DNA of 64,000 bases from Fidelibacterota bacterium (GCA_004124875.1 SCKJ01000003.1:156654-220653); one strand, 5' to 3'; counted from the stretch's first letter, positions 28,394 through 48,886 are shown. Numbers and translations are program-made. The notes: generated by a model from the letters alone, not told the origin.

Positions 28394-28453
28394 TATACTT
28401 AACCCTGAACGGTCAAAAGATATTAATATGAATATTGTTCAGTAGCATCCAAT

Positions 28454-29098: not shown

Positions 29099-29106
29099 TC
29101 GATGAG

Positions 29107-30255: not shown

Positions 30256-30292
30256 TTACTTTATTTGCAGAGGCGGAAATATACTGGTTTGA

Positions 30293-31459: not shown

Positions 31460-31552
31460 ATATTACTTAAGAAAAGCCAGTTTTAATAGGACAAGTGGCC
31501 CATTCAAAGGTCTGTGCCTTTATGTATGATCCATCCTCAGTCCCCGCCGCCC

Positions 31553-32449: not shown

Positions 32450-32652
32450 AATGGAATTCTCCTGCCGTAAATATAAAAAAGTGTTTTAACCCAAGGCCGA
32501 AGCTAGCCCATTCTACTGCTGATAACGACCCTTTTCGGCGCCATTGACCAACACGGTCCCATCGGTGGCGTAAGAAATTCTGTGCCATACTTTGCCCGTT
32601 GCATCTGTTAATTTTGCCGTTGATATGGCAACCCCTGGCACCCAGAGCAACG

Positions 32653-34050
32653 ATGGCTGAAGCGGCCTCCAACCATTTCGATGTTCTGATTATAGGCGCC
32701 GGCCCCGGAGGGATGGCGGCCGCCACGAGGGGCGCCATCAAGGGGCTGAAAATCGGCCTGGTTAACGGCCAGCGGTTGTGGGGCCAAGGCATCCATGGCG
32801 CCTATAAATCAAAAGGCATGTACGAGCTGGCCAAGGATCACAGGGTGGCCACCAAGCCGGGACGCGGTTATATGCCAGCGGCGCCAGACATCGATTTTAG
32901 ACAGGTGCAGACGCAGCTGCTCCAGGGCGCGGCGGAGCTGGAGTCCATGTACGAGGCCCAGATCGAAATGCTCAACATCACCGAGATCAGGGGCATGGCC
33001 GTGTTTGTCGATCGCAGCACGATCTCGATCAAAGATACCCGCTACACCGCGAAGGACTTCATCATCGCCACAGGGACCACGCCAAAGTGGATTCCCAGCA
33101 TCCAGCGGGACAACAATCGCATCATGACGTCCGATGAAATTGTGTCACTGTCGGTCAGGCCGGACAGCCTGCTGATACTCGGCGCCGGGGTGATCGGCTG
33201 CGAGTTCGCTTCCATATTCAACATATTCGGAGCGGAGGTGACGCTCCTCGATGCGCGGGAAAAAATCCTCGCCCATGAAGATGACGATATTGGCGCTTTC
33301 CTCACGGAAAACTTTCGCGCCAACGGCATTGCCATCATCAAGTCGGCAAAAATGAGCGCCATGCTGGTGGAGGGTGACCAGGTGGTGACGACGCTGGAGG
33401 ATGGCAGCCGGTTCCGCACTGACGCGGCCTTGGTTTCCGTTGGCCGGACGCCGAACACGAAGGGGCTGGGCCTTGGCGATATTGGGGTCAAGCTGGATGC
33501 TCAGGGGTATATCAAGATTGACGAAAACTGTGGCACCACGGTGGAGCACATTTACGCTGTGGGCGATGTGGGGCGGCGGGAGAATTCGCTCGATCTGAGC
33601 CTTGTGCATGTTGCGGAGGCGGAAGGCCACCAGGCCATTGGTCATATTCTCGGCGGTGAACCTCACACGCCCATGAGCCACATTCCGTTTATCATCTTTA
33701 CGATTCCCCTTATTGCGGGAGCGGGCGAAAGCGAGAAATCTGCCCGCGAAAAGTATGGCGATGTGCGTGTGGCCAAGCTCAACAACGTGCGCAATCATCG
33801 GGCCCATGCCATGCGCTCCTTCGCCGGTTTTGTGAAACTGATCGTGGGGCCGGAGGGCGATGACCGCATCCTGGGCGTGCGGGCCTGCGGGCCCCAGGCC
33901 GACACCCTCATTGGCGAAGTCTCCCTCTGCATCCAGTACGGCCTGCCGTATACCCATCTGATGGATGCCGTCCATGCCCACCCGTCCCTATCGGAGAGCC
34001 TGCACAACGCCGCCCGCATGCTGGCCGGCCTCTATCCGATCCACGACTAG
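32653..34050 (+). CDS. FAD/NAD(P)-dependent pyridine nucleotide-disulfide oxidoreductase family protein (dihydrolipoyl-dehydrogenase-like, no obvious redox-active CxxxxC)
   Basis: FAD-binding FDVLIIGAGPGG and a second Rossmann motif (LLILGAGVIGCEFA) with a C-terminal dimerization-like domain. Start chosen at MAEAAS (32653) rather than the track start at 32599. Confidence 0.65.
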   Translation: MAEAASNHFDVLIIGAGPGGMAAATRGAIKGLKIGLVNGQRLWGQGIHGAYKSKGMYELAKDHRVATKPGRGYMPAAPDIDFRQVQTQLLQGAAELESMYEAQIEMLNITEIRGMAVFVDRSTISIKDTRYTAKDFIIATGTTPKWIPSIQRDNNRIMTSDEIVSLSVRPDSLLILGAGVIGCEFASIFNIFGAEVTLLDAREKILAHEDDDIGAFLTENFRANGIAIIKSAKMSAMLVEGDQVVTTLEDGSRFRTDAALVSVGRTPNTKGLGLGDIGVKLDAQGYIKIDENCGTTVEHIYAVGDVGRRENSLDLSLVHVAEAEGHQAIGHILGGEPHTPMSHIPFIIFTIPLIAGAGESEKSAREKYGDVRVAKLNNVRNHRAHAMRSFAGFVKLIVGPEGDDRILGVRACGPQADTLIGEVSLCIQYGLPYTHLMDAVHAHPSLSESLHNAARMLAGLYPIHD

Positions 34051-34610
34051 GGCGACAGCCGCTCACTGCCGGCATGCCACCGCCGGGCCAGCTCAAAGCC
34101 GACCACACCGAACGCCGTGGCCACATTCAGGCTCTGCTTCACGCCCATCATCGGCACCACCAGGCAGAGGTCGGCGGCGGCCACCACTTCATCGCTGACC
34201 CCGGTCACCTCATTGCCTACCACAAAGCAGACGGGAAACCTGATCGGCGCTGCCCAGAAATCGACGGCGTCGGTGGTCTGCTCCAGTACGGCGATCTGCA
34301 TGCCCTGGCGGCGCAGCGTGTCGACCCGGTCGATGGCTGAAGCGTGCTTTTCCCAAGGCACCGTATGCTCCGCGCCCAAGGCTGTTTTGGTGATCATTTT
34401 GTGCGGCGGGAAGGCGCTGTAGCCGCAAAGTTCCACCCGGGCCATATGCAGGGCGTCGGCGGTGCGCAGCATAGAGCCCACATTGTAGGCCGAGCGTATG
34501 TTCTCCAGAATGGCGTAGATGGGCAGCCGGGGGACATTGCGCAGATCATCCATGCCGGGGCGGGCCTTTTTGAGCTCCTCGTCACTGTATTTGCGGCGGA
34601 CCACGGGCAA
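34047..34610 (-). CDS. TrmH/SpoU-family RNA 2'-O-methyltransferase
   Basis: SPOUT motifs (LENIRSAYNVGSMLRTADA; CFVVGNEVTGVSDEV; MGVKQSLNVATAFGVV). Confidence 0.75.
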   Translation of the reverse strand: MPVVRRKYSDEELKKARPGMDDLRNVPRLPIYAILENIRSAYNVGSMLRTADALHMARVELCGYSAFPPHKMITKTALGAEHTVPWEKHASAIDRVDTLRRQGMQIAVLEQTTDAVDFWAAPIRFPVCFVVGNEVTGVSDEVVAAADLCLVVPMMGVKQSLNVATAFGVVGFELARRWHAGSERLSP

Positions 34611-34765
34611 TTTTAGGGTCGCCGGTGTGTCGTGTCAACGGCCCAGCTTCCCTGCAAGACTGAGCCCCTTTTGATCGTAAATTAACCTATAGCCCTCCAG
34701 ATTGGGCGTGTGGGAGTAAATGCGATCGAATGGAACTATAACTATAACTCCAACGCGAAGGGGAC

Positions 34766-35902
34766 GTGATGAAGATACTTGTGCTTGGCGGCGGGCTGGT
34801 CGGCAGGACCATCGCCCTGGATTTAAGTTTGGATGAAGGCAGCGAAGTCACCGTTGGCGATCTTGATCCCGCCGTGCTGGAGGGATTTGACGGAACGACG
34901 GTCAATAAGACACTTTCCGTCGACGTAACAGACACCGCCGCGCTGGATAACGCCATCGGGGATCACGAACTGATTGTCTGCGCCGTGCCGGGCCATCTGG
35001 GCCATGCCGTCATTGTGGCGGCCATTAATGCCGGCCGCCAACTGGTGGATATCTCCTTCGGGGAGGAGGATCCGCTCGCGCTCCATGACGTGGCCGTGAA
35101 AAATGGCGTGACGGCCATTGTCGACGCCGGTATTTCGCCGGGGCTGGCGAACCTGATTCTCGGCCGTTTCTACAAGGAGTATGACTCCATTGACCGGTTC
35201 ATCCACTTTGTGGGCGGTCTTCCGGAGGAGCGCCACTGGCCGTTCGAGTATATGTCGGTCTTTTCGCCCATTGATGTCATCGAGGAGTATACCCGGCCCG
35301 CGCGGATGAAATCGGGCGGCAAGCTTGTGGTCCGGCCGGCTCTCTCGGACGTGGAGCTGGTCGACTTCCCACTGGTCGGAACGCTCGAGGCGTTTTCCAC
35401 TGATGGCTTGCGCACGCTGCTGACCACCCTGCCGATCCCTTACATGAAAGAGAAAACGCTGCGCTATCCGGGGCACGCCGACCGGATGCGCATGCTCCTG
35501 CAAACCGGCTTTTTCAGCACTGATCCCATCGAAGTTGGCGGTCAGCAGATCATTCCCCGCGAAGTGACGGCGGAGCTTTTATTTCGCGCCTGGGCTCCCA
35601 AGGGCAATGGACGCGATCTGGCCGTCATGCGGGTGGAAATTGAAGGCGTGCTCGGCGGCAAGGAGGTGAAGACCACGGTCGATCTTTACGACGGCTACGA
35701 TCAGCAGACCGGCACGACGGCCATGGCCCGCACAACAGGCTTTACCTGCTCGGCATCGGCGCGGCTGATCATTAACGGCACTTTTACGAAGCCCGGCGTC
35801 TATCCGCTGGAGCTGGTCGGATTCGATGAAACCGCGTACCAGGCGGTGCTGAATGACTTGAGCCAGCGGGATATTTTTCTGCAGATTCAGCAGCAAAGCT
35901 GA
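34766..35902 (+). CDS. Saccharopine-dehydrogenase-family NAD(P)-binding oxidoreductase
   Basis: N-terminal Rossmann MKILVLGGGLVGRTIALDL; length and order typical of the Sacchrp_dh family. Confidence 0.65.
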   Translation: MMKILVLGGGLVGRTIALDLSLDEGSEVTVGDLDPAVLEGFDGTTVNKTLSVDVTDTAALDNAIGDHELIVCAVPGHLGHAVIVAAINAGRQLVDISFGEEDPLALHDVAVKNGVTAIVDAGISPGLANLILGRFYKEYDSIDRFIHFVGGLPEERHWPFEYMSVFSPIDVIEEYTRPARMKSGGKLVVRPALSDVELVDFPLVGTLEAFSTDGLRTLLTTLPIPYMKEKTLRYPGHADRMRMLLQTGFFSTDPIEVGGQQIIPREVTAELLFRAWAPKGNGRDLAVMRVEIEGVLGGKEVKTTVDLYDGYDQQTGTTAMARTTGFTCSASARLIINGTFTKPGVYPLELVGFDETAYQAVLNDLSQRDIFLQIQQQS

Positions 35903-35908
35903 TGGGAG

Positions 35909-37717
35909 TTAGGGGATGTCCACGCCGTCCGTGTAGCCGGGAACTTCAAGTTCGCGGTGGGTGAGCGGGGGCAGATCTTCTGCGGGCCACGAAAGTATTT
36001 CCAGCAGGTTGATGTTGACGGTGATGGGGTAGTAATCCCGGATCCGCCGGACAATCCAGGCTTCCAGCACCGGGGCTTTGCCCTCCTCATTCCATCTCAA
36101 TTTTAGATTTGTGAAGAGCTGACCGGGCTCAAGCCAACCGGGGTGACGAAGACCCCAAACCCGCACAAACAGGGTGTGGCCGTCAATCTGCACGGGTCCG
36201 ATGACGGTACCGGCGATGGCGGAGGCCAGGGAGTCTGCCAGCGCAGGAGACCAGGGGCGATACAGGTCAGCCGGCATCCATCCGAGGCGGCCCATGAGAG
36301 GCCGTGCCCACATTCGGCCGGTATGTTTGGCCGCCAATACGCTCAGTGATGCGCCGGCCTGAATCTGGCTGGCCAGCATGGCTGCTACGGCGCTGTCTGC
36401 CACAATGAGCTCTTCCAGATCGACTTCCGTGCGCCGGTAATAGAGGGTTGAATCGTTACCCCACAGCTCGAAAAGTGTCCCTTCTGACGGCATGGCGCGG
36501 TCCATGAGTTGCCGGACCATCTTTCGCAGAACGATGGCGTCCACAGCCTCCTTGCGGGTCTGCTCAGCCATGGACAGCCAGTGCCGGCCGTCAGGCAGCG
36601 ATTCCACCAGATCCAATAAATGCATGACCATGAGCAGCTCGCTGATCAGGTCCTGCAACCCGATAAGTTCCCTGGTGTAAAACGGCGATTCCGGCGGCAA
36701 CAGATGCAGGTTTTGCGACAGCCACTTAAAAGTGTAAGGCTGCCGGTCGATAGTAAACAGCGGGGCGTCCGCGAATTTGGGGTTGGCAGCCGTTAGCGCC
36801 TCAAGTGGGTCGCTGGCCGACAGGTATTGCTCCTTGATGATTTTGCGCAGGCGGCGCTTGCTCCACTTAACCGGCTGGGCGGCCACCCATAAGCGCAGCT
36901 CCTGATATACCTTCTCCAGGGAGATTTGCTCACCAACAATCTCGCGCAGCTCCTGCTGACGCCGGACCCGGCCGAAATGGCCATGCGTGGGACTAAAATT
37001 TTTCCCCAGCAGATGGATCAGGGCAAAGCCGTCGTCCGTGCGGATGGGGCCAGACAAGCCTCCCGGTTGCAGCGCGGCCGCCGCTTTGGCGTACTCGGGA
37101 TCGAGCTGGGCGGGGTAGAGCCAGCCGCGGTCCCACGGCCCTGCAAGAATCAAGGCGGTCGGTGAGTAGCGCAGGGCCACCGATTCAAAAGGCACTCCAG
37201 AGCGCAGGGCTTCAAGGGCAGTGAGGGCCGTGAGGCTGTCGGCAAAGGTGATGGAGCGGGTATGCAGGGAGGTCTGCTCCTGGCGGTAGGTGGCGCTGAT
37301 GATCGCTTCTGCGCTGGAGACTTTCTGCAGGAACAGGCGGCGCCCGATCTGGTCGGCCAATACGTCCCGCCAGGCATGGTAGGCTGCGCGGCGGATTTCG
37401 GGATCACCATCCAGGCCGCTTACGTAGCCCTGGTGAATGAGCAGGCGCTCGCCGATCAGATTGTGCAGATGCTGCAGCCGGGTTGGGAGGGAGTCGGCCG
37501 CGTTGCTTTCCAACAGAAAGGGGGGATAAGTGAGGTCGTAAGCCGCGACATCGATGCTGTCATTGCCGAAATAGGCCAGCGCCCCCTGCGCCCATAGGCC
37601 CACAGGCAGTGACCCCAGGATGAGCAGTGCCACCACGATCCGGCGGCGGAATTTGGAACCTGTATAAACCAACTGAAGCGCGACTCCCGCAATTGCATGA
37701 CTAAATGGACCGCCCAA
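35909..37717 (-). CDS. SurA/PpiC-type periplasmic peptidyl-prolyl isomerase/chaperone-like protein
   Basis: Signal-anchor N-terminus. Parvulin-like segments (GGLSGPIRTDDGFALIHLLGKN; AGTVIGPVQIDGHTLFVRVWGL). Confidence 0.5.
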   Translation of the reverse strand: MGGPFSHAIAGVALQLVYTGSKFRRRIVVALLILGSLPVGLWAQGALAYFGNDSIDVAAYDLTYPPFLLESNAADSLPTRLQHLHNLIGERLLIHQGYVSGLDGDPEIRRAAYHAWRDVLADQIGRRLFLQKVSSAEAIISATYRQEQTSLHTRSITFADSLTALTALEALRSGVPFESVALRYSPTALILAGPWDRGWLYPAQLDPEYAKAAAALQPGGLSGPIRTDDGFALIHLLGKNFSPTHGHFGRVRRQQELREIVGEQISLEKVYQELRLWVAAQPVKWSKRRLRKIIKEQYLSASDPLEALTAANPKFADAPLFTIDRQPYTFKWLSQNLHLLPPESPFYTRELIGLQDLISELLMVMHLLDLVESLPDGRHWLSMAEQTRKEAVDAIVLRKMVRQLMDRAMPSEGTLFELWGNDSTLYYRRTEVDLEELIVADSAVAAMLASQIQAGASLSVLAAKHTGRMWARPLMGRLGWMPADLYRPWSPALADSLASAIAGTVIGPVQIDGHTLFVRVWGLRHPGWLEPGQLFTNLKLRWNEEGKAPVLEAWIVRRIRDYYPITVNINLLEILSWPAEDLPPLTHRELEVPGYTDGVDIP

Positions 37718-37819
37718 GGTAGAGCGGCACGATCACTGCAGGAAACCCTTTTTGGGCGGGAGTGGCGTGGTGTGGCAGTGCTGTTTATCGCCTAAAGATT
37801 ATGCGTAATTTCGCCATGA

Positions 37820-37893
37820 GCCCCGGTAGCTCAGCTGGATAGAGCAACGGCCTTCTAAGCCGTAGGTCATCGGTTCGAATCCGATCCGGGGTA
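37820..37893 (+). tRNA. tRNA-Arg (anticodon TCT)
   Basis: Cloverleaf read by eye: acceptor GCCCCGG/CCGGGGU, D-arm GCUC-AGCUGGAUA-GAGC, anticodon stem ACGGC/GCCGU with loop CUUCUAA, variable AGGUC, T-arm AUCGG-UUCGAAU-CCGAU, discriminator A. CCA is not encoded. Confidence 0.85.
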
Positions 37894-37894
37894 C

Positions 37895-37932
37895 TAAAAA
37901 GAAGAACCCGCGTTTGCGGGTTTTCTTTTTAA
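37895..37932 (+). terminator. Rho-independent terminator after tRNA-Arg
   Basis: aaaaagaagaacccgc-gttt-gcgggttttctttttaat: a GC-rich hairpin followed by a T-run. Confidence 0.7.
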
Positions 37933-37966
37933 TAGTTCGTCTGAGGATGAGAACCTTGGTTCGAGC
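37924..37966. repeat. 43-nt repeat R1 (copy 1). Identical copy at 43502-43544; degenerate copy at about 39723-39760.
   Basis: agttcgtctgaggatgagaaccttggttcgagccggagcgatc occurs identically at both sites. Each copy is adjacent to tRNA-Arg-derived sequence. Confidence 0.8.
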
Positions 37967-38462
37967 CGGAGCGATCACCATTACCCCGCAAACGGCCAGT
38001 ATTGATGGAGAGGACCGCCAGGTATTGGTTTTCTCCTGGCTGGATGCGCAAGGGGAGCCTGTGCATCAGGCGGTGGATATGTCTGACTAGGCAGCGTGCC
38101 TATTGAGGCATTGGCAGATATTCGCGCGACAAAGGGCTGCATATGAATGCAGCCCTTTGTTCATCTGGATGATTGTGTAAACTGCTTTCGTATTTTGGCA
38201 GTAGTTTATACGGTATTATAACTTGATAATGCATGTAATATTACTTAATTTTGGGTGATTATGATTAATCCTAGCAAAAACTGGATTATATTTAATACAA
38301 AACCGAGGAGGTCACCCATGAAACTATCTGCTAACCTGGTATCTATTTGGTCATTCGATCACCCATTAAAGCCATGCTTGTTGTTATATCCTCAAGCGTG
38401 GCTGGTAAAAGATTCAAATCCTTTTCAAAATCACGTCGTAAACCTAGTCCGGAGGAGTGATT

Positions 38463-38645
38463 ATGAGTGGAATGGACAAAGGAAAAACAGGGGAGTCGAA
38501 AGAAGTTCCGGTTGATATTGAGATTATCGAGATTATCGAGATTATCGAAGAAACAGAGACTACTGGAGATATTCAGGACAAATCTACCTATATTGGGGTT
38601 GTTGGGAGACCTGTCCCCCCAAAGATATTGATCTTGAAGCAGTAG
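38463..38645 (+). CDS. Small acidic hypothetical protein with EIIEIIEII repeat (island cargo)
   Basis: GGAGG RBS 7 nt upstream of the ATG. The repeat is encoded by (GAGATTATC)3 at 38516-38545. AT-rich context. Confidence 0.3.
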   Translation: MSGMDKGKTGESKEVPVDIEIIEIIEIIEETETTGDIQDKSTYIGVVGRPVPPKILILKQ

Positions 38646-38734
38646 TACCATTAGAATTCTCGGGCAATTCTCTTTACATGCACCCATCAATGTATCAGAG
38701 GATTGTTCCTTAATATCAATTACTTGAGGTTCTC

Positions 38735-38980
38735 ATGAACGATATATCAGAAGAGAAGAAAATTATATCAGAAGAAAAGAAAATTCGAATTACTGCTGAT
38801 TTTCATCCAGATGCCTATGCAGTACTTAATCGTGTTGCCGACATGCTACACACTAGTAAAGCTGACGCTTTAAGACGAGCACTTGGACTAATCGATTATA
38901 TTCTTACCATTCAATCCAATGGGAGTGAATTAATCATTGAAGAGAAAGGTGGCAAGCGAACCGTAATTAAGACCTTTTAG
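38735..38980 (+). CDS. Ribbon-helix-helix-like small DNA-binding protein (antitoxin/CopG-like)
   Basis: 81 aa. ITADFHPDAYAVLNRVADMLHTSKADALRRALGL resembles an RHH beta-strand-helix-helix pattern. Confidence 0.45.
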   Translation: MNDISEEKKIISEEKKIRITADFHPDAYAVLNRVADMLHTSKADALRRALGLIDYILTIQSNGSELIIEEKGGKRTVIKTF

Positions 38981-39591
38981 ACTGTGGATAGATTATTGCA
39001 AACTGCCTAAAGGAATACGGAGTCAATAATAGCAGAACAAAAGCCAGCAACGCTGGATACGGCACCAGAGAACCCTACAGTCGAAAAAGAAGGATTCGTC
39101 GGGCCCCCTGAAATTAATGTTTCAGGATTCGTCGGGCCGCCTACCAGCCCTGAAATTCATGTTCTTCGCCGTGAAAAAACAAGGAATTATATTATATTTG
39201 CGGTGCTTGGCATGATGGCACTAATTGTCTTTATACCTTATTTAGTACAGCCTAAATCAGATACACATTGGAACCTTTTAATATACGCTCTAAATGGTCT
39301 AACTGGTATTCTTGGAACTAGTATAGCCTTTTACTTTCGGCTGAGGGATAGAGAATAGACAGTCAACGGCGCAAGGCTAAACTGTCTCTCTAGCTAAAGG
39401 GTTGTATTCTTATTTATGAATTGTAAGAGGGAATATTCGATTCATTTATAAATCAATAGCATCTGTATTTATTTCCATAGTTGAAATCGAGGCGTGCCCA
39501 AGAAATCTCGAGACAAACCGCATTATCGGCGTCAGAGTTTCGTCACTCTTTCTTGCCGCCTTTTTTCTTTTGTCGTCGGACAGACCAAGTT

Positions 39592-39663
39592 CTTCTAAGC
39601 CGTAGGTCATCGGTGAGTTGATCCCGCGTAACAAAGTGAAGCGGGGAATCCGATCCGGGGTAC
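39592..39663 (+). pseudogene. Degenerate partial copy of the tRNA-Arg 3' half (anticodon loop to acceptor end) with a 32-nt insertion in the T-loop, followed by a copy of the tRNA terminator (about 39698-39725)
   Basis: cttctaagccgtaggtcatcgg + tgagttgatcccgcgtaacaaagtgaagcggg + gaatccgatccggggtac matches 37849-37892 apart from the insertion. The downstream aagaagaacccgccacggcgggttcttctt mirrors the terminator at 37895-37932. No tRNA 5' half is present. Confidence 0.75.
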
Positions 39664-39934
39664 TCGTCGACAGGCTTTGTGCAGGCGTTTAAGAAGAACC
39701 CGCCACGGCGGGTTCTTCTTAATAGTCTGCCTATGGCTTCGATTCCTTGTTCGAGCCGAGACCCGCGGAATGACGGGCCGAGACTGGTGAGGAGTCATGA
39801 GGTGGCGGCAATCTGTTCTACAGCAGTAGCCTCACACTTCGTACGACCAATTGGACGACAATAGCAATTTATATGTGAGTCGCGATACGAGTTTTGATCT
39901 GCAAGGAACCGACTAATTTGAGTTGGCTGCTCAT

Positions 39935-41461
39935 TCAGCGTAGATTTGGGGGCCGAATATCGTTATCAAGCTTCTGGCCAATCTGAATTACTACTTGAGG
40001 TAACGCCTCAATATCGCCCAGTGTTGTACGAAAATTTACAATGCAGGCTCTCAATAAATATTTTCCGTCCAGTGCTGCGTTCGAGATAAACACCTCGCCT
40101 CCAGCCTGCAGCTGGGTAAGAAGTGATTCGTTCAACTCGTTTAAATAGGCCTCAACTTCTGTGTTTTTATCGGGTAAATCAGTGGGTACGTAGCGGAAGG
40201 TTGTAATACTTAGACTGTGAGACCCAGCCTCGAGATCGGGGGAGTCCTCTGCAATTTGGTAGAGCACTTTTGCCAAGGCAATGTCGTCACCAATCATCTG
40301 GATGTAGCCCTCCTTTCCTACTTGGCGCAATCCTAGCCAAACTTTCAGCGCGCGGAATCCACGAGAATTTTGGAGACCAATTTCATGAAAATTGATAGGC
40401 GGGACATCCTCAGTGCTCGCGAATTTAAAATAGCTTGGGGTATGAGTAAAAGTATCTACCAAGTGCTGGGGATCTCGGACTAGTGCGCAGCCTGCTTCAA
40501 GGGGTGCATAAAGCCATTTATGTGGATCGAGTGCGATTGAATCAGCTTCGGATAATCCCTTCAACTGCACAGAAGCATCGGGCAACATAGCAGCGGGCGC
40601 ACCGTATGCGCCATCTACGTGAAACCACAGATCGTATTTTTTACAAAGGGCCGCAATTGCGGGTAGATCATCAATCGCGCCGGTGCCTACAGTTCCCGCT
40701 GCACCCACAACCATAAATGGCAAAAATCCCTCGTTGCGATCGGTAATGATTTTATTTTCCAGCGCAGCCATTTTCATTTTCTGATCGGAATCTGTCTCAA
40801 TCCAGCGAATTGAGTTACCGCCCATTCCGAACAGCTCGGCTGCTTTATCTATCCATGTATGAGTCTCTTCGGACACGTAAGCGAGGAGCTTCGGATGATC
40901 GCTACTAGCCAAGCCCTCCGTACTAATATCCCATGATGCTTTTGAATTTCGGGCTGCGAGGAAACAGACAAAATTTGCCATGTTGCCGCCACTCACCATA
41001 AGTCCGCCGCAGGTTCTTGGATAACCGATGAGGTCAGCGATCCAGCGAATCAATTGAGCCTCGATTTCACTCGCGATCGGTGATAGAATCGCCGCCCCTA
41101 CATTTGGGTTCACCGCACCAGCCAATAGGTCAGCCAGAATGCCTATAGGAGCTGCAGAGGAGGTGATATATCCCCAAAACCTTGGATGACCATTGTGCAA
41201 CGAATTGTCAAATAGCAGATCAGACACTTCAATGAGCAGATCTTTTGCGGCTGATCCGTTCTCAGGCAAGACGTCCCCACCTAACAGTTCACGAATAGCT
41301 AAATGAGATTTCCCGCTAGTCACTGGTCGCTGCGGCAGATCATCGAGAAACTCGGCGATCTGGTCTACGAGCTGGTGGCCGAGCCTACGAAATTCGCTAC
41401 CGTGAATCTCTAGTGGCATCTCTCGAGCACGTAACTGCATCCTTTGATCATTCTCGATCAT
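39935..41461 (-). CDS. PLP-dependent group II amino-acid decarboxylase (aromatic-L-amino-acid/diaminobutyrate decarboxylase family)
   Basis: 508 aa. SGGNMANFVCFLAARN, the PLP-lysine region SIALDPHKWLYAPLEAGCALVRD, and a HVDGAYGAPAA motif. Embedded in AT-rich island DNA. Confidence 0.8.
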   Translation of the reverse strand: MIENDQRMQLRAREMPLEIHGSEFRRLGHQLVDQIAEFLDDLPQRPVTSGKSHLAIRELLGGDVLPENGSAAKDLLIEVSDLLFDNSLHNGHPRFWGYITSSAAPIGILADLLAGAVNPNVGAAILSPIASEIEAQLIRWIADLIGYPRTCGGLMVSGGNMANFVCFLAARNSKASWDISTEGLASSDHPKLLAYVSEETHTWIDKAAELFGMGGNSIRWIETDSDQKMKMAALENKIITDRNEGFLPFMVVGAAGTVGTGAIDDLPAIAALCKKYDLWFHVDGAYGAPAAMLPDASVQLKGLSEADSIALDPHKWLYAPLEAGCALVRDPQHLVDTFTHTPSYFKFASTEDVPPINFHEIGLQNSRGFRALKVWLGLRQVGKEGYIQMIGDDIALAKVLYQIAEDSPDLEAGSHSLSITTFRYVPTDLPDKNTEVEAYLNELNESLLTQLQAGGEVFISNAALDGKYLLRACIVNFRTTLGDIEALPQVVIQIGQKLDNDIRPPNLR

Positions 41462-41711
41462 TATCTATACCTCAATTCCAATTTGGGGGAGATTTATAAA
41501 TCACAATCTAATCAAAGTTAAACATTGATCCGGAATTATACCATATCCGGGCGGTATCGTTGTGCGCATCAGAGCATTGTGGACCACTCGTCGGTAATTG
41601 CCAATAAACACTTTAGTGGTCGCCTTAGTCACCGCTGGTCACCATTGGCCAAAATTCTGCCTCGTTTTCCAACCTCTTTTTTGGCCTGTCGAGGAGACCC
41701 CAATGATCTGA

Positions 41712-41749
41712 AAATCCATGTGTCGGCGGTTCAATTCCGTCCCGAGCCA
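41712..41749 (+). other. tRNA/tmRNA-like 3' fragment (T-arm plus acceptor 3' strand), probable attachment-site remnant
   Basis: GTCGGCGGTTCAATTCCGTCCCGAGCCA-cta has a T-stem/loop and 3' acceptor resembling the 3' end of tmRNA or a tRNA. No matching 5' acceptor strand lies within 400 nt. The antisense ORF 41625-41825 (..RDGIEPPT..) is the usual artefact of reading through such a sequence. The 30 nt upstream (cgaggagaccccaatgatctgaaaatcca) are repeated at 43283-43314. Confidence 0.5.
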
Positions 41750-41756
41750 CTATAAG

Positions 41757-41790
41757 AAAGGCCCCTTTTCTCGTCGGGAAGAGGGGCCTT
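41757..41790. terminator. GC-rich palindromic hairpin (possible terminator)
   Basis: aaggcccct-(15 nt)-aggggcctt, a 9-bp perfect stem. A T-run (atgcattttc) follows on the plus strand only. Confidence 0.35.
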
Positions 41791-42280
41791 ATGCATTTTC
41801 TAGAGACATTTTTGAGGAGCTTCAAAAGTGGTCAGAATGGGGTACCTATAGGGCGTTTTCTACTCGTTTTCCTTACCCGTTTTTGAAGCGAGTTATTAAT
41901 TTTGTCTAGAACCGATTAAAGGGAATATTAGCTAGAAGACTCTGCATTCTCACGAGCTCACCACTTGATTGAGCTTCACACTCACCAGGTTTTATACATT
42001 ATCTTGTGGGTTTTATCGGGCTGACTGATCCGCCAACAAAGAGCGCTCCAACAGAGGAAGCGTTTTCACCTGAAACCACGGCACCAAATGGTATCTGTGT
42101 CATGAATAGGATGCCCAGAAAGGCTCTCTTAACTTTAATCTCAACCTACCCGAAACGATTTGACGATGTACAGAGTACTACTCCATTAAATATTTGATTC
42201 AAATCTTTACATTTCTGTGACATTAGCATGACAACGTGCTGTTAAACATTTGATAGATTAAGGCAACCAGGGAGGTAATT

Positions 42281-43024
42281 GTGCTACATCGCTTTGGACC
42301 AGTCAGTCTTTTATTGTGCTTGCTGTCTAGCTTCCTTACGGCTCAAAATGTTTCTGAGTCTAAGTACGAAGCAAGTTACAATCCAATGCTCTGGGTGTCT
42401 TACAATCCAAAATCTGACGACATTTTTAATCAGACCTTCACCGTGATAACGAAAAAGATGATTTCGAAAAATGGCTTCGAGTTAATGCGTGGCTACGGGA
42501 TTGGACATCTTGAACATAAGAGCCGCAGATTCCCTTCAGACTTGAGACTCAGTCCAAGAACTATTCGCAGGATACCTGACAAAGAATGGAGCAGACTGAC
42601 AATGGTTTACCAGGAGATGCGGGCCGAACTAGCTAGCGATGGAATCCGGCTTGGGCTGGTGGGTACCTTAGGAATAGGCTATGCAAAATATAGCGGGCAG
42701 CTTTTTGAAACAGTAACGTACTATAACGATATATTGGATGAAACTGAATATGATCAAAGGTTTAAATCATCCTATGACGCGAGTGGAGCCACCTACTTCG
42801 CCAGTCTAGGAGCGCGATTGAATCTTGGGGGGATTGTTGTGGAACTGCGCAAGAATTACGGACCTGGCCACGACCAAACGATTAGATACATATCCTTTAA
42901 TCTTGGCTATGAGACGAGTTCCCTGGGTATATCCATGATTCCTCCTTTCCTCGGGATAGTCGCAGCCATTATGATGAGTCAGCTGACATTTGACTTCGGG
43001 GATTCCTTTAGTGGAGCCCTATAG
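42281..43024 (+). CDS. Hypothetical secreted/outer-membrane beta-rich protein (island cargo)
   Basis: Signal peptide (MLHRFGPVSLLLCLLSSFLTAQ), alternating hydrophobic beta-strand-like segments, and an aromatic C-terminus. AT-rich codon usage. Confidence 0.45.
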   Translation: MLHRFGPVSLLLCLLSSFLTAQNVSESKYEASYNPMLWVSYNPKSDDIFNQTFTVITKKMISKNGFELMRGYGIGHLEHKSRRFPSDLRLSPRTIRRIPDKEWSRLTMVYQEMRAELASDGIRLGLVGTLGIGYAKYSGQLFETVTYYNDILDETEYDQRFKSSYDASGATYFASLGARLNLGGIVVELRKNYGPGHDQTIRYISFNLGYETSSLGISMIPPFLGIVAAIMMSQLTFDFGDSFSGAL

Positions 43025-43586
43025 GATGAAAAGAAGCTTACAATGGCGGCCTTTCAGTATAGCTAGATTGCCTAACTATTTCGCTTTAATCTTTTTTCAC
43101 ACAACTTTTATTCACGGGAACAATTCTGGGCTGATGGGTCAATTCCCGCCTTTCTTCAGGTTAGTTACGTGTACACCAAATATGCTTCAAGACTGATAAA
43201 TCGACATCATCTGGATAGGTCACCTTAAGTCAGCATTGATCAAATTACTGCCACGTTTCCCATACTCTTTTTTATTTTGTCGACGAGACCCAAATGATCT
43301 GAAAATCCACTGCTTAGCGTTCTATTTGGCGTGAGCGGTTAATAATGAGGACCTCAAGAAGGCTTACTAAAGACCGTCCTACAGGTTATTATCTGCTTCC
43401 TACCCCTCTTTTGTTCTGTGGCCGTTATTTAATAGGAACTGGCGCCAGTTTTAGCCAGTGCGTGCCACAAAGTGCCAGAATTGGACATCACTTTATAGCA
43501 CAGTTCGTCTGAGGATGAGAACCTTGGTTCGAGCCGGAGCGATCCCGACATTTCGGGAGAGCGGAGACCTATTGAGCGTAGCGAAA

Positions 43587-43607
43587 TGAATCCGATCCGG
43601 GGTACGA
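43587..43607 (+). other. Isolated copy of the tRNA-Arg 3' end (att-like remnant)
   Basis: gaatccgatccggggtac matches 37875-37892. It is preceded at 43502-43544 by repeat R1. Confidence 0.7.
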
Positions 43608-44074
43608 GAGAGGCAGTCAGTAATCGGCCCTCAGCGGACGCAACCTTCGGATTTGTCTGTCTTTGCCGCACTAACCTGATCCTGGTAGATCTTGTCGCAA
43701 CAAGCCTTGTTCACTGCGTCTGACTGCAGGCCCCCTTTCTATTCGTGCGTAGATGCACGTTCATATCCCGTCAGCATAATTCCTTGCGCATTACACAAAG
43801 TTCTTATGCCAAGCGTTGAAACGTATACCGTCGGGGGGATCGTTCTGAGTTTTACAATTCGAGACGGGTAAAACGACAAATTTCGAGCTGTTTCGCCCGG
43901 TCTCCGTGAGCGGGATATAGTCCCGTTTACGAGGGATTATGAGACAGCGGAACTGCGGCAGGAATTTATTGCCTTCAAATGGGTCAACATTTAGATTCCG
44001 TGCCGCTCCGGTGATGATTATGTTTGTAATCTGTGTGCCGGGATGAAGGCGGCCAACTGGCTGGGGAGACTAAG

Positions 44075-47000
44075 ATGAACGATTCTAGGAAAACCAAAGC
44101 GGAACTCATTGACGAGCTGGTGGACTTGCGAACAAAGGTGAACATGGCCACTGACCAACCCAGCGGCAGCGGCCAGCCTGGAGTTCCCGTCCGTGACCAT
44201 GAGCCGGGCTCCGACGCCGATCAAGAGTTACTGTTCAAGAGCGCCCTGCTTCAGGCCCAGGATAACTTCAATGGTATCCTGGTGGTGGATACCGGTGGTA
44301 AGGTGGTCTCAGCCAACGACCGCATGCGTGAGCTCTGGGCCATCCCGAAGCGCATCTGGAACACCAAGAAAGACGCCCGGCTGTTGGAATACGCCGCAAA
44401 GCTGCTCCGCCATCCCGACGAATTCAAGGAGAAGGTGGCCTACCTGTATGCCCATCCGGAGAAAAAATCGCAGGACGAAATCGAATTAAAGGATGGCCGC
44501 TATTTCGACCGTTATTCAGCGCCGCTCACTGATTTTCAGGGGAATCATTACGGCCGTATCTGGTTCTTCCGGGACATCACCGAGCGCAAGACTGTTGAGC
44601 TGGCCCTTCGGGAAAGCGAGGCGCGGTTTAAGACGATTTTTGAACAAGCGCCTGACGGTATGTATTTGAATGACTTGAAGGGCGTATTCCTCGACGGCAA
44701 CAGGGCTGCGGAGAACCTGCTGGGATATAGTAAAGAGGAACTCGTGGGCAAAAGTTTCCTGAAGCTGGGCTTGCTTTCTCCACTGCAGCTCCCCAAGGCC
44801 GCAAAACTTTTGGCGATGAACGTGTTGGGACACCCGACGGGCCCGGATGAGTTCACGCTAATTCAAAAGGGCGGGGGTCAGCTGCCCGTAGAAATAAGAA
44901 CGTTCCCGGTGACAATAAATAGTACACCTGCCGTGTTGGGCATTGCCCGGGATATCACCGTAAGAAAAGAGGCAGAGAGGGCTCTGAGGGAGAGCGAGGA
45001 GCGGCTACTGACAGTGATGGGACAGGTTCAGGTTGGGATCGGGGTCACCAACAAGGAAGGGTTTCTCCAGTTCTCAAATGCAGCGATGACCAGCCTCACG
45101 GGCTATGCAACCGAAGAAATTATTGGACGAAGACCCACAGACTTCCTGCACCCGGATGACCGGGCAATGGCGAGGCAAAGGATCCGTGACTTGGCGCAGG
45201 GGGCTCCCGAGGCTCCTTCGGAATACAGGCTGATCAAGAAAGATGGTGAGACTGTCCAGATAGAGATTTTCTCGCGCAGAATCGTGTTCAACGAAGAGCC
45301 GGCAATCTTGAGCATTATTTCTGACATCACCGAGCGCAAGGCTTCAGACCAGCGTTTGCGGGAGAGCGAGGAGCGCTACCGCGACTTGTACCACAGTATG
45401 CCTCTGGCCTACTTTTCGGCCGACAGATATGGCATCCTAGCCGACATGAATGAACGCGCCCTGGAATTGACGGGCTACAGCCGGGACGAACTGGTGGGCA
45501 TGCCGGCGATGGAACTTTACGCCGACACGGAGCACGGCAAAGCCAAGGCCATTGCAATAAATGAGCGGGTGTCGGCAGGAGAGCAGGTGAATGGCGCCGA
45601 GATGGAGATGCGACGGGCGGACGGCAGCACCGTGTGGGTGAGCCTTTCCGTGCAGCCAGAGCTGGCCAACCAGCGGCGGCGGGCCATTGTGGAGGATATC
45701 ACCGTACGTAAGGAGGCCGAGAAGGCTCTGCAGGAGAGCCTGACGAACTACCAGTTCCTGCTGAACAACTCGCCCGATCCCGTGTTTGTGAGCCGGATTG
45801 CTGATTTCCGTTTTACAATGGTAAACCAGCGGGCCTGCGACAATTACGGCTACACCGTGGAAGAGTTCCTGGAGATGGAGATATTTGACATTGAGACATA
45901 CGAGCCGGTGCGTGAGGAGGTGCGGGCACTTTATGACAGCACATCCATCGGGCAGGTGCTCAAGGTAGAGGGCATTAACAAGCGCAAGGACGGTACAACC
46001 TTCCCGGTAGATGTGCGGTTCACCAAAATCAATGGTGATCTTGCGTTGGCCATTGTCCGCGACATTTCCGAGCAGATGGAGGCCGAGGGTGCGCTCCAGG
46101 CCGCCCACGATCTGCTGGAACAGCGGGTGGCTGAACGCACTGCAGACCTGAGCGAAACCAACACCCGGCTGGAGCAGGAAGTGGCCGAGCGCAAGCAGGC
46201 GGAAGAGACCATTCGCCAACGGACAGAAGACCTGACGCTGATCAATGATCTGAATAACGCCGTCAATCATGGCGACAGCCTTCAGGATATCATTCAATTG
46301 TTATCCCGGGAGACCGCACGGATGTTCTCGGCCCTCGGGGCAGCCGTCTATCTGCTCACTGACGACGATAAATACTTGACCATGCAGAACCTCCCGCTTA
46401 AGCCGGCAGTCGTGAAGCGGGTCGAAAAAATTATCGGTATCAAACTGCCAAGGTTGAAAATACCGCTGAAAACAGCGAGTCTCCACTTGGAGACCATCCA
46501 ATCGCAAAAACCTCATCTATTCAACGATCCCGAAACAATTAAGCGCTGGGCCATGGAATTTGTGGATGATGTGAATTTGCCCCTAAAGAGTTTGCGGTTG
46601 CCGGTACTGAAGCTTGTTCCACAGGTACTAAAAATTATCGGCATCCGTTCGACCATGGTACAGCCATTGGTTTCTCATGGGAAAATTATTGGCCTGCTGG
46701 ATATTTCGAAGAAAAAGGCCTTCTCTGAAGCTGATTTGCGGCGCTTCGGTTTCATTGCCGGGCAGATGACCACCCTGATCAACCGCAAACAGGCTGAAGA
46801 GGAAATCAATGCAAGGAATGAAGAACTTGCCCACCTGCACCATCTCGATGAACTCAGCCTCTCCGGAGCCGGGCCACACGAACTTGCCGAAGCATTTTCA
46901 GATAGAATTGTGGAACTATTCGGCGGTTACGGCACGGAGGTCTATTTCCTGACGCCCGACGGTAGTGAAATGGTTCTTCAGAATATCGGCCTAAAAAAGA

Positions 47001-48886
47001 GTGCGCGCGTAAAATTAGAAAAGCTTCTAGGGGATACAATCAAGAATGCCCGCTTCTTCACTGCGAAGGTCAGAGCCTTCCAAAGGGTGATCGAGTCCCG
47101 GGAACCTCTCTTTCTAAACGACGACCAGGAAATAAAGGGTCACATCAAGGATCTGCTACACGCTTGGAATAAGGCAAAAGGGTGGAGAGGCAGGGTTCTG
47201 GTCGCCTTGTTGGACAAAGTCACGAAAATTCTCGACGCACCCACTTTCTTGATTATACCCTTGCGGTCTGAAGATGACGTACTGGGTGCCGTACAAATCA
47301 TGACGCGTGGTGATTTGAGCACCTATGATAAGGGCCACATTCTCCGTACCGCCAGTCACCTGAGCAGCCTTATCATGCGAGCCCGGGCTGAGGCAGCCCT
47401 TAGTGAACAGGCTCAGATTCTCCAGCAGGTTCATGAGGCCGTCATTGTCTCCGATCTCAACAAAATGATTACCTTCTGGAACAAGGGAGCCCAGGAGCTT
47501 TTCGGATACGATAGCAATGATGCGTTGAACCTGCAAATCAATTTCCTCATCGTAGATGACGAAAAGGAAGTCGGGATGGACGGTGCCCGGCAGGAGGCGC
47601 TGCAGCAGGGTCAGGCCACCATCGAATGGAGAATGCGCAAAAATAGCGGCGAGACTTTCGTGGCTCGCATCACTTTAACGCCCTACAAGTCTCAGGGGGG
47701 CAAGACACTGGGGATTATCCGTACGATTACGGATATCACTCAACAGAGAAAGCTCGAGGAAGAGCAGCTACGCAGCCAGAAACTCGAGTCCCTCGGAATC
47801 CTCGCGGGCGGGTTGGCCCACGACTTCAACAACCTTCTCACGGGCATCACGCTGAATGTGGGCACAGCACGCGTCGCCAGCCAGGACCCGGAGGTCGTTG
47901 AGCGACTGAGGCAGGTAGATGTGTCCATCGGCCAAGCCCGGGGCATTACACAGCAGCTGCTTACTTTCTCCAGAGGGGGTAGCCCCATTCTCCAGCCGGG
48001 AGATATCAGACCGGTCATCAGGGAGGGAATTGCGTTTGCTCTGCACGGCACCAAAGCCTTGGCAAAACTGGATATCGAGAAGGATCTTGACTGGGTGGTG
48101 ATGGATGAGAATCAGATCAACCAGGTCATTAACAACCTGACTATCAACGCGGCCCAGTCCATGCCCTCGGGGGGCCGGGTTACGGTGCGCGTCCGTAACA
48201 TCCGGGTGCGCAAGAACGACGACCGTCCGCTGAGCCCGGGCCGGTATGTCCAGGTAAGCATCGGCGATGAAGGCACGGGCATCGTGCCGGAGGTTATGGA
48301 CTTCATCTTCGACCCCTACTTTACCACCAAAAATATAGGCAACGGTCTGGGGCTGACCTCCTGCCATAGTATTATCGAAAAGCACGGCGGGTGGATTTCG
48401 GCGGAGTCGGAAGTCGGACGAGGCTCAACATTTACCTTTTATTTGCCGGCAAGTGTCAGCAGGGAACGGCGGGCGGCCGAGTCTCCGAAAGCCGTTGGAA
48501 ACAGCCATGGGCACATCCTGGTGATGGACGATGACGACATGGTGCGGCGGGGGTTTCAAGCGATTCTGGAGCTGCTGGGCAACACGGTGGTGACAACCGG
48601 CGATGGTGACGGGGCGGTGACGGCTTATCAGGAGGCGCTGGAGGCGGGCACGCCATTCCACGCGGTGATCCTGGATTTGACCATACCGGGGGGCGTCGGT
48701 GGAGAAGGGGTTCTCAAGCGGCTGCAGGAGTTGGATTCCGAGGTGCGGGCCATCGTCTGCAGCGGTTACGCCACTGACCCTGTAATGGCTAATTTCCGGG
48801 AGCACGGCTTCCGGGCGGTGCTGGTAAAGCCATTCAAGGAGCAGCAGTTGCATGAAGTGCTGGACGAGGTGCTGGCGCCGTCCTAG
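44075..48886 (+). CDS. Multi-sensor hybrid histidine kinase/response regulator (tandem PAS and GAF domains, HisKA, HATPase_c, REC)
   Basis: At least six PAS-like modules separated by the recurring linker ITERK/VRKEAE-x-ALRESEER, plus GAF-like segments. H-box LAGGLAHDFNNLLTGI; ATPase region (NLTINAAQSM...GTGI...GLGL); C-terminal receiver (ILVMDDDDMVRRG...VILDLTIPGG...LVKPF). Start set at MNDSRK (44075), preceded by GGGGAG. Confidence 0.85.
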   Translation: MNDSRKTKAELIDELVDLRTKVNMATDQPSGSGQPGVPVRDHEPGSDADQELLFKSALLQAQDNFNGILVVDTGGKVVSANDRMRELWAIPKRIWNTKKDARLLEYAAKLLRHPDEFKEKVAYLYAHPEKKSQDEIELKDGRYFDRYSAPLTDFQGNHYGRIWFFRDITERKTVELALRESEARFKTIFEQAPDGMYLNDLKGVFLDGNRAAENLLGYSKEELVGKSFLKLGLLSPLQLPKAAKLLAMNVLGHPTGPDEFTLIQKGGGQLPVEIRTFPVTINSTPAVLGIARDITVRKEAERALRESEERLLTVMGQVQVGIGVTNKEGFLQFSNAAMTSLTGYATEEIIGRRPTDFLHPDDRAMARQRIRDLAQGAPEAPSEYRLIKKDGETVQIEIFSRRIVFNEEPAILSIISDITERKASDQRLRESEERYRDLYHSMPLAYFSADRYGILADMNERALELTGYSRDELVGMPAMELYADTEHGKAKAIAINERVSAGEQVNGAEMEMRRADGSTVWVSLSVQPELANQRRRAIVEDITVRKEAEKALQESLTNYQFLLNNSPDPVFVSRIADFRFTMVNQRACDNYGYTVEEFLEMEIFDIETYEPVREEVRALYDSTSIGQVLKVEGINKRKDGTTFPVDVRFTKINGDLALAIVRDISEQMEAEGALQAAHDLLEQRVAERTADLSETNTRLEQEVAERKQAEETIRQRTEDLTLINDLNNAVNHGDSLQDIIQLLSRETARMFSALGAAVYLLTDDDKYLTMQNLPLKPAVVKRVEKIIGIKLPRLKIPLKTASLHLETIQSQKPHLFNDPETIKRWAMEFVDDVNLPLKSLRLPVLKLVPQVLKIIGIRSTMVQPLVSHGKIIGLLDISKKKAFSEADLRRFGFIAGQMTTLINRKQAEEEINARNEELAHLHHLDELSLSGAGPHELAEAFSDRIVELFGGYGTEVYFLTPDGSEMVLQNIGLKKSARVKLEKLLGDTIKNARFFTAKVRAFQRVIESREPLFLNDDQEIKGHIKDLLHAWNKAKGWRGRVLVALLDKVTKILDAPTFLIIPLRSEDDVLGAVQIMTRGDLSTYDKGHILRTASHLSSLIMRARAEAALSEQAQILQQVHEAVIVSDLNKMITFWNKGAQELFGYDSNDALNLQINFLIVDDEKEVGMDGARQEALQQGQATIEWRMRKNSGETFVARITLTPYKSQGGKTLGIIRTITDITQQRKLEEEQLRSQKLESLGILAGGLAHDFNNLLTGITLNVGTARVASQDPEVVERLRQVDVSIGQARGITQQLLTFSRGGSPILQPGDIRPVIREGIAFALHGTKALAKLDIEKDLDWVVMDENQINQVINNLTINAAQSMPSGGRVTVRVRNIRVRKNDDRPLSPGRYVQVSIGDEGTGIVPEVMDFIFDPYFTTKNIGNGLGLTSCHSIIEKHGGWISAESEVGRGSTFTFYLPASVSRERRAAESPKAVGNSHGHILVMDDDDMVRRGFQAILELLGNTVVTTGDGDGAVTAYQEALEAGTPFHAVILDLTIPGGVGGEGVLKRLQELDSEVRAIVCSGYATDPVMANFREHGFRAVLVKPFKEQQLHEVLDEVLAPS

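Follow-up and report, generated by a model that had tools for sequence, protein, structure and literature searches.

Islander (Hudson, Lau and Williams, 2015; PMC4383910) maps genomic islands by the logic of a tRNA gene plus a displaced fragment of it, and distinguishes two main classes of attachment (att) site, with sublocations taken from Williams 2002, cited there. In streptococci, ICEs (integrative and conjugative elements), IME-type elements and cis-mobilizable elements (CIMEs) undergo tandem accretion, decay and composite capture (reviewed in PMC5704250; Pavlovic 2004 and Bellanger 2011 are cited there). The tycheposons of Prochlorococcus have tRNA seeds including Arg(tct), and partial tRNAs and fragmented integrases lie scattered in their islands (Hackl et al., bioRxiv 10.1101/2020.12.28.424599). 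Here we analyze a 64-kb stretch of DNA from Candidatus Marinimicrobia (the window, with coordinates counted from its first letter), in which a tRNA-Arg(TCT) gene is followed by an AT-rich block bounded by two copies of a 43-nt direct repeat, R1. The block is a mosaic of att-type debris. It is comparable to CIMEs and tycheposon islands, and is a decayed composite of a known kind.

The locus shares several features with the islands in Islander. An intact, regenerated target tRNA (tRNA-Arg, 37820-37894) lies at one end, and 3' fragments of it are displaced towards the other end in the same, direct orientation (plus strand, 39646-39663 and 43588-43605). As in the Islander att classes, the fragments start either at the anticodon loop (39592, and 41708 for a piece of tRNA-Phe) or in the T-loop/T-stem region (a core of 18 nt). 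The gene for transfer-messenger RNA (tmRNA) is also used, in another genome (L027), by related arms, as we call the sequences directly 5' of the target copies. In contrast to those islands, the block has no integrase (no Phage_integrase match in the open reading frames (ORFs) of the island). Its borders do not lie at the tRNA and a tDNA fragment; compared with the relative L004, the indel is bounded by the 43-bp non-tRNA repeat and runs from R1 to R1 (37977-43501). Moreover, several of the fragments in the window are most likely imported debris rather than attR sites left in place.

As with the streptococcal CIMEs and ICEs, decayed elements are arranged in tandem or nested at a tRNA 3' end, and whole composites may be captured and moved. 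Att-type direct repeats flank both borders, as in a CIME (R1, identical at 43 of 43 nt), and the block is free of integration and transfer genes. It differs from the streptococcal systems in the lack of conjugation or mobilisation genes, in its host, an uncultured marine member of Marinimicrobia, and in the units of a relative, which go down to about 115 nt; likewise, no cognate integrase has been demonstrated for R1. With the tycheposon islands the locus has in common a marine bacterium, an Arg(tct) seed, partial tRNAs, newer elements that push older ones distally and metabolic cargo. However, the hallmark of tycheposons, a tyrosine recombinase with a primase/helicase replication module, was not found at 37.9-43.6 kb.

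Borders of the block at tRNA-Arg(TCT)

The features that define the locus and its borders are as follows.

37820-37894, plus strand: tRNA-Arg(TCT) (ARAGORN; Rfam tRNA, 72.8 bits)
37903-37933, plus strand: intrinsic terminator of tRNA-Arg, stem 37903-37924 followed by a T run (terminator scan; conserved in L004)
37934-37976, plus strand: R1a, left copy of the 43-nt direct repeat and left border of the indel (repeat search; a single, 100% identical R1 in L004)
43502-43544, plus strand: R1b, right copy of the 43-nt direct repeat and right border of the indel (repeat search; comparison with L004)
43545-43587, plus strand: type-A arm, made up of the hairpin tcccgacatttcggga followed by gagacctattgag and gcgaaat (adjoins R1 in L004)
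43588-43605, plus strand: core O, an old scar of the tRNA-Arg 3' end (also in the relative L004)

To reach the relative L004, we used a homologue of the flanking peptidyl-prolyl isomerase (PPIase; 95% amino acid identity). Exact look-ups with the longest-ORF translations of the flanking PPIase and of the decarboxylase in the block gave no match, and a genome-contig scan using the PPIase returned unrelated loci only. The DNA of L004 is 95.7% identical to the window over 31547-37976. Its locus is uninterrupted and reads tRNA, terminator, one R1, 43 nt and a tRNA 3' scar. After R1, L004 runs straight into the sequence found at 43545-43605 of the window (99% over 104 nt), so that 37977-43501 together with one R1 is a single indel of 5,568 bp. 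The relative, which lacks the block, has a single R1. The type-A arm at 43545-43587 shows 98.4% identity to L004, and is homologous to unit U4 of that genome (z = 4.2).

R1 is perfect over 43 of 43 nt and has two matches in the window, which none of 100 shuffles reached. The flanks of R1a and R1b are unrelated on both sides, with an abrupt change at each R1 edge. An initial annotation, made from the sequence alone, had noticed two identical copies; it placed the right one correctly, whereas the left one, given as 37924-37966, was 10 nt off. It had also delimited the block by the tRNA fragments, and the comparison with L004 moves the borders to the R1 copies. Because L004 carries the right tRNA fragment too, this fragment is older than the block: 43588-43605 is an older scar common to both genomes. 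This also explains the order of R1 and tRNA fragment at the right border, which had appeared inverted. R1, the next 43 nt and the fragment already belonged together as a single unit, and the block lies right after R1, which is duplicated.

The GC content of the block is 0.447, with values of 0.39-0.48 in its cargo parts, compared with 0.595 in the left flank. Being AT-rich and missing in a relative of 95.7% identity, the block is foreign DNA, as had been proposed initially.

tRNA-Arg(TCT) is the one tRNA called by ARAGORN in the window, and the gene is also present in the relatives L004 and L025. It is a functional gene and the seed of an integration hotspot. ARAGORN, the Rfam score and the terminator stem all agree with the intact gene and terminator of the initial annotation. 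In direct orientation, the final 17-18 nt of this gene (GAATCCGATCCGGGGTAC) are present in three copies, located at 37877-37894, 39646-39663 and 43588-43605. Three copies were reached in 0 of 100 shuffles; the partial copies are therefore att-type scars and not chance similarity, in line with the earlier proposal.

Beyond its first scar unit, L004 carries three more copies of the tRNA 3' end, spaced by units of 100-180 nt, and thus holds four displaced copies in total. The sequence in front of the core is of two types. In L004, type A consists of the hairpin tcccgaNNNNtcggga, then gagacctattgag, then gcgaaat. Type B consists of the tRNA variable loop and T stem, followed by a hairpin (G)AGTTNATCCCG...CGGG that replaces the T loop; it is the same as the arm at 39604-39663 of the window, and the hairpin-plus-core arm is present in units U2-U4 of L004 as well. 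Even with the core left out, unit U2 can be aligned to the complete tRNA-Arg (z = 3.7; 1 of 500 shuffles). The arm hairpin is paired in every sequence, with one compensatory pair among 5 sequences, a result matched by 45 of 500 shuffles. To the right of the core at 43588, the window is similar to the sequence flanking L004's third scar (81% over 47 nt). Between core copies, units have therefore been gained or lost in one genome relative to the other as well.

Past the scar array, L004 (1-2325, read on the minus strand) holds a different AT-rich island with two ORFs of 210 and 203 amino acids. At the end of this contig we notice a 3' part resembling tRNA-Met(CAT) (L004 93-33; Rfam tRNA, 23.5 bits, E 0.099), which is more imported tRNA debris.

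Some candidate interpretations of R1 and the units were tried and rejected. A derivation of U1/R1 from tRNA-Arg gave no significant alignment (z = 0.9). As structured RNAs, R1 and the units had no Rfam match and fold z-scores of -0.1 to -1.5, and we do not claim an RNA. A search of IMG/VR and the JGI metagenomes with the non-tRNA core pattern KGAATCCGATCCGGGGTAC returned 11 matches, all of them by chance and inside coding DNA. A 30-mer of R1 had no match in IMG/VR or the JGI metagenomes.

Contents of the block

Between the two R1 copies, we distinguish the following parts.

37977-38165, plus strand: unit F, the 3' fragment of a small immunoglobulin-like (Ig-like) ORF (...ITITPQTASIDGEDRQVLVFSWLDAQGEPVHQAVDMSD*), GC 0.545
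38166-39445, plus strand: AT-rich module S1 with small ORFs, GC 0.39
39446-39520, minus strand: possible remnant of a tyrosine-integrase C-terminus (..SRFLGHASISTM..), weak
39592-39663, plus strand: tRNA-Arg 3' half, most likely imported (repeat search, alignment)
39664-39830, plus strand: diverged spacer, terminator (39691-39722), R1' (39723-39760) and type-A arm, uninterrupted (alignment to the L004 unit; repeats D2 and D10)
39935-41461, minus strand: group II pyridoxal phosphate (PLP)-dependent decarboxylase, cargo (Pfam Pyridoxal_deC, E 8e-65)
41628-41790, plus strand: D1a, an 80-nt arm, the 3' half of tRNA-Phe(GAA) (41708-41750) and a strong terminator (41758-41790) (Rfam tRNA, 19.6 bits; terminator scan)
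42281-43024, plus strand: ORF of 247 amino acids, hydrophobic helix at the N-terminus, cargo of unknown function (nothing matched in Pfam, PHROG or NCBIfam)
43219-43309, plus strand: D1b, second copy of the arm (79%), ending after GATCTGAAAATCCA and including no more than the leading 11 nt of the tRNA-Phe piece

The middle site begins with 23 nt (39592-39614) identical to tRNA-Arg from the first base of the anticodon loop. A 32-nt hairpin (39615-39645) replaces part of the T loop, and core O follows at 39646-39663. The repeat search further revealed a copy of the terminator (83%, 39691-39714) and a degenerate R1 (72%, 39713-39758). The degenerate tRNA 3' half with its terminator copy was thus rightly recognized in the initial annotation, which took the fragment for an attR left in place. 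On the contrary, it lies inside the indel and belongs to a diverged, uninterrupted unit. This module of about 240 nt (39592-39830) aligns end to end with the L004 series of tRNA 3' half, terminator, R1, type-A arm, core and start of the next unit, at about 60-85%, and within it R1' is contiguous with the arm. Most likely, the middle tRNA-Arg module was imported with the block.

The left end of the block is formed by unit F, in which a 14-bp perfect hairpin (38129-38160) follows the Ig-like ORF fragment. A HMMER search showed that ORFs of 51-95 amino acids have only the C-terminus of unit F in common, their N-termini being unrelated; the search also finds repeats in giant Big_1/PKD proteins. 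The viral scan of unit F was negative, and no relatives were found in IMG/VR or the JGI metagenomes.

Copies of unit F in other places show what it can adjoin. On L027, unit F (83-91% identity) lies beside tmRNA debris, downstream of the tmRNA gene (Rfam, 53.7 bits). The segment 1-260 of L027 comprises a type-B hairpin (GGAGTTTATCCCGCG..GCGGG), next ACCTCCACCCA, which copies part of the tmRNA 3' end, and finally a type-A-like hairpin; the copy of unit F comes behind this series. The type-B hairpin beside the tmRNA copy indicates that related arms are used at two different RNA-gene targets. On L028 (10018-10225; GCA_022561075.1, JADFRX010000009.1), in the same genome as the block, a paralogous fragment of the Ig-like ORF (81%) occurs together with a terminator. 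This copy of unit F lies in a core intergenic region between CytoC_RC and Vut_1 genes, with no tRNA nearby, and a weak R1-like stretch precedes the ORF fragment (z = 3.5). The right-hand partners of R1 differ between places. The idea that the block ends are contiguous in the L028 paralogue, as in a circular permutation, was rejected, since the left flanks are not similar (z = 0.7).

Module S1 contains ORFs at 38318-38515 and 38463-38645 (the latter with EII repeats). Its 81-amino-acid ribbon-helix-helix (RHH)-like ORF occupies 38735-38980, and a membrane ORF has its end at 39358. The matches of these ORFs to PHROG 8557 (E 7e-6) and PHROG 9990 (E 1.3e-5), both of unknown function, are weak. For the RHH-like ORF, a single-sequence AlphaFold2 (AF2) model displays a beta-alpha-alpha topology at a predicted local distance difference test (pLDDT) score of only 53, too poor to use, and no relative was found in IMG/VR. 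S1 also holds the internal tandem repeats D4, D12, D14 and D16. We notice in-frame tandem repeats at 38516-38551 (9 nt, EII), 38743-38784 (21 nt, ISEEKKI) and 39091-39163 (33/42 nt, GFVGPP..EI(N/H)V).

At 39446-39520, a tblastn search with the integrase of the sister strain L025 gave a motif of 13 amino acids at E 1.3, and otherwise only matches in the tRNA overlap. The sole NCBIfam match is the tyrosine recombinase PRK00283 (at the place in the profile that would be expected, positions 262-281, E 0.12), and Pfam gave none. Judged by these similarities, the motif of about 20 amino acids is at most a possible integrase remnant.

To the right of the middle site, the cargo comprises two larger genes and a second tRNA-derived module. 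The decarboxylase has an 81% homologue on L003 among unrelated neighbors, and the named homologues of 66-68% are mostly from Chloroflexota metagenome-assembled genomes (MAGs). The tRNA-Phe 3' half (41708-41750) begins exactly at the anticodon loop and has 93.6% identity to a Priestia plasmid tRNA-Phe (alignment z = 23). The arm in front of it is part of a 91-nt direct repeat (41628-41718 and 43219-43309, 79%), which is absent from the initial annotation. Neither the arm upstream of the tRNA-Phe piece nor the sequence after D1b gave a significant result as tRNA-derived DNA, and both candidates were dropped. For the 247-amino-acid ORF, the AF2 model (pLDDT 34) is not usable, and the viral scan gave one weak match at 28%.

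Scans of the block with Pfam, PHROG and NCBIfam detected no integrase, excisionase or transposase. The initial statement that no integrase is visible therefore holds, with the possible remnant of about 20 amino acids as the most that can be set against it. No integrase was found among the other window ORFs scanned either. The block is not a transposon or insertion sequence (IS) by its content: the repeat search found no terminal inverted repeats at its ends, and no transposase is present. A 43-bp duplication is far longer than the usual target-site duplications of transposons and IS. For a prophage or a satellite resembling phage-inducible chromosomal islands, the two weak PHROG matches of unknown function are all that the block offers. 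Compared with 50,697 phage records, it has no DNA match; in the phage and plasmid collections, the tRNA-Phe piece is the only match.

An integrase at the same tRNA and other parts of the window

The sister strain L025 is represented by a 2.6-kb contig of a cluster member, 98% identical to L004. Right after ..CCGGGGTAC of its tRNA-Arg, L025 has new sequence with a convergent ORF. This ORF contains ..HTLRKTAGS..LGHSNVTVTQQHY, matches Pfam Phage_integrase with 29.6 bits, and is also matched by Xer-like NCBIfam models. A Phage_integrase gene directly after the tRNA bears out the initial view of this tRNA as an integrase target, and shows that the site is a live hotspot. The variable-loop position of tRNA-Arg is C in L025 and in unit U2 of L004, and T in the window and in the L004 tRNA. 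The C in the L025 tRNA is expected if an element supplies the tRNA 3' half.

At this one locus, three strain states are visible: the scar array without interruption, the same array holding the islet, and an element that bears an integrase. Next to the L025 integrase, no R1 or arm is seen within the 2.6-kb contig. The integrase has no relatives in IMG/VR or the JGI metagenomes, and its viral scan was negative. We also notice that the integrase ORF (L025 2-403) extends about 65 codons beyond the catalytic Tyr, running antisense through the tRNA-Arg 3' half before a stop. The att region therefore overlaps the 3' end of the int gene.

Further observations concern other parts of the window. A second AT-rich islet (28394-31546, GC 0.37-0.45) includes an ORF of 214 amino acids and, on the minus strand, the genes of a GmrSD_N restriction-type protein (29107-30255) and of an N6/N4 DNA methylase (30293-31459). 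This islet is missing in L004 and L026, where DUF503 adjoins the Band_7 gene. Directly right of the scar array, 44033-48886 encodes a PAS-rich hybrid histidine kinase of 1,603-1,617 amino acids. This kinase has no close orthologue among 5.8 billion proteins, the next best match being 38% over one third of its length. Its GC content (0.554) is slightly under that of the flanks, and the strain-variable region may extend further right. At 50020-53595 on the minus strand lies the gene of a 1,191-amino-acid protein with a C-terminal Peptidase_S74 domain, the endosialidase intramolecular chaperone typical of phage tail fibres; it contains an internal 199-nt repeat (51985-52183 and 52438-52636, 83%).

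Origin of the block

We consider it probable that tRNA-Arg(TCT) seeds a hotspot where a 5,568-bp integrase-less composite islet was inserted, by recombination of R1 with R1, into an older scar array. The lineage carries an old array of att scars downstream of tRNA-Arg, in which each copy of the tRNA 3' end stands behind an element-derived arm. The islet (37977-43501 plus one R1) sits in the first scar unit, composed of terminator, R1, arm and tRNA 3' end. We infer a Campbell-type integration, in which the resident R1 recombined with the single R1 copy of a circular DNA. This may have been catalyzed by a trans-acting tyrosine integrase like that of the sister strain, or by RecA working on the identity of 43 bp. 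The DNA that came in would already have been a decayed patchwork accreted at other att sites. Its pieces would be the unit with the ORF fragment, small genes of phage-like kind, part of the tRNA-Arg scar array of another genome, a decarboxylase and a tRNA-Phe-site module with its repeated arm. The direction of the event is suggested by the uninterrupted unit, which exists in two well-diverged copies (L004, and 39592-39830 of the window) and is therefore the older configuration. An insertion on the side of the window is thereby favored over a loss in L004 through R1 x R1 recombination. The overall pattern also agrees with published models of how islands grow at tRNAs. Of the successive integrations at the tRNA 3' end proposed in the initial annotation, the hotspot, the att scars and the decay stand, whereas the borders and the history differ.

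Several points speak against such an insertion. Only two lineages are compared, and the arrangement would look no different had the L004 lineage lost the block by an R1 x R1 deletion. The position of R1 next to the ORF fragment may be an old adjacency (compare the R1-like stretch on L028, z = 3.5). The block shows no integrase, excisionase or circular junction, and tyrosine integrases do not usually have as their core a 43-bp identity that lies outside a functional gene. R1 itself has no match in an Rfam search and a fold z-score of -0.1. Furthermore, searches of IMG/VR and the JGI metagenomes found no relative of R1 or the arms, so no autonomous parent element is known.

A possible but clearly less probable account is build-up in place. 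Here, successive elements would have entered at the tRNA 3' end and formed tandem islands (37895-39645 and 39664-43587) bounded by the three cores, with R1a and R1b as element arms (R1b, 43 nt, core ... core, 40 nt, R1a), and the relative would have lost the cargo by R1 recombination. The three direct cores in the right orientation fit well, as do the near-symmetric distances of the R1 copies from the outer cores (40 and 43 nt) and the start of the middle site exactly at the anticodon loop, like class-A att sites. The integrase of L025 uses tRNA-Arg, and the possible integrase remnant lies beside the middle site. However, the diverged internal copy has terminator, R1' and arm contiguous as in L004, so that this arrangement is old and not the product of a recent deletion. 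Two elements would also have supplied R1a and R1b, yet these are 100% identical, and R1' reaches only 72%. Furthermore, the DNA right of the middle core copies the chromosomal scar array rather than an element arm. Chromosomal-type DNA of another tRNA-Arg locus, along with a unit also found in the core genome, could point instead to allelic replacement, in which linear DNA from a divergent strain was exchanged by crossovers in conserved flanks and R1 is the mere edge of shared homology. The neighboring histidine kinase without a close orthologue would suit this account, as the variable region may be larger than the block. We regard allelic replacement as unlikely, since it makes no 43-bp direct duplication, whereas R1 is there in two copies and the flanking sequence changes sharply at each edge.

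That the AT-rich block is an assembly or binning artefact, a chimeric join at repeats in a MAG, is very improbable. Some short contigs do have their ends precisely in repeats (in R1 for L022, in the two D1 copies for L019). However, contigs of several independent assemblies, from different samples and assemblers, reach across the two R1 junctions as well as the internal module at 99.7-100%; these are an NCBI MAG contig of 397 kb and ENA contigs of 200 kb and 3.5 kb. The same island is found at 99.7-100% identity in the NCBI MAG, in ENA contigs of several samples and in Logan contigs. As a separate observation, L021 and L023, which come from different samples and have 99.7% identity to the window, both stop at base 40180 in the decarboxylase gene, and the Logan contig L019 covers exactly 41722-43309, between the D1 copies. 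These ends could be strain-level breakpoints or repeat-induced assembly breaks.

A more far-reaching idea, which we hold to be rather doubtful, is that R1 and the hairpin arms are working att modules of integrase-less miniature elements, moved and amplified in trans by visiting tyrosine integrases. Members of such a family would be the units of the L004 array, attP-only and about 115-180 nt long, as well as the 5.6-kb islet. Their (G)AGTTNATCCCG hairpin arm, directly 5' of the copied target 3' end, would have been re-targeted to tmRNA elsewhere. If true, these elements would be an integrase-driven counterpart of miniature inverted-repeat transposable elements (MITEs). The residual novelty of the locus lies in this possible att-module role of the R1 and arm units; otherwise, the biology is already known.

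Beyond the insertion by R1 x R1 that we favor, the locus is a comparatively documented case of a tRNA gene seeding a variable region in an abundant uncultured marine phylum, whose mobile elements are poorly described. Island mapping by a tRNA plus a displaced fragment would mis-delimit the islet of the window. Partial tRNA copies inside an island need not coincide with the ends of that island: there are older scars of the site among them, as well as copies imported together with the cargo.

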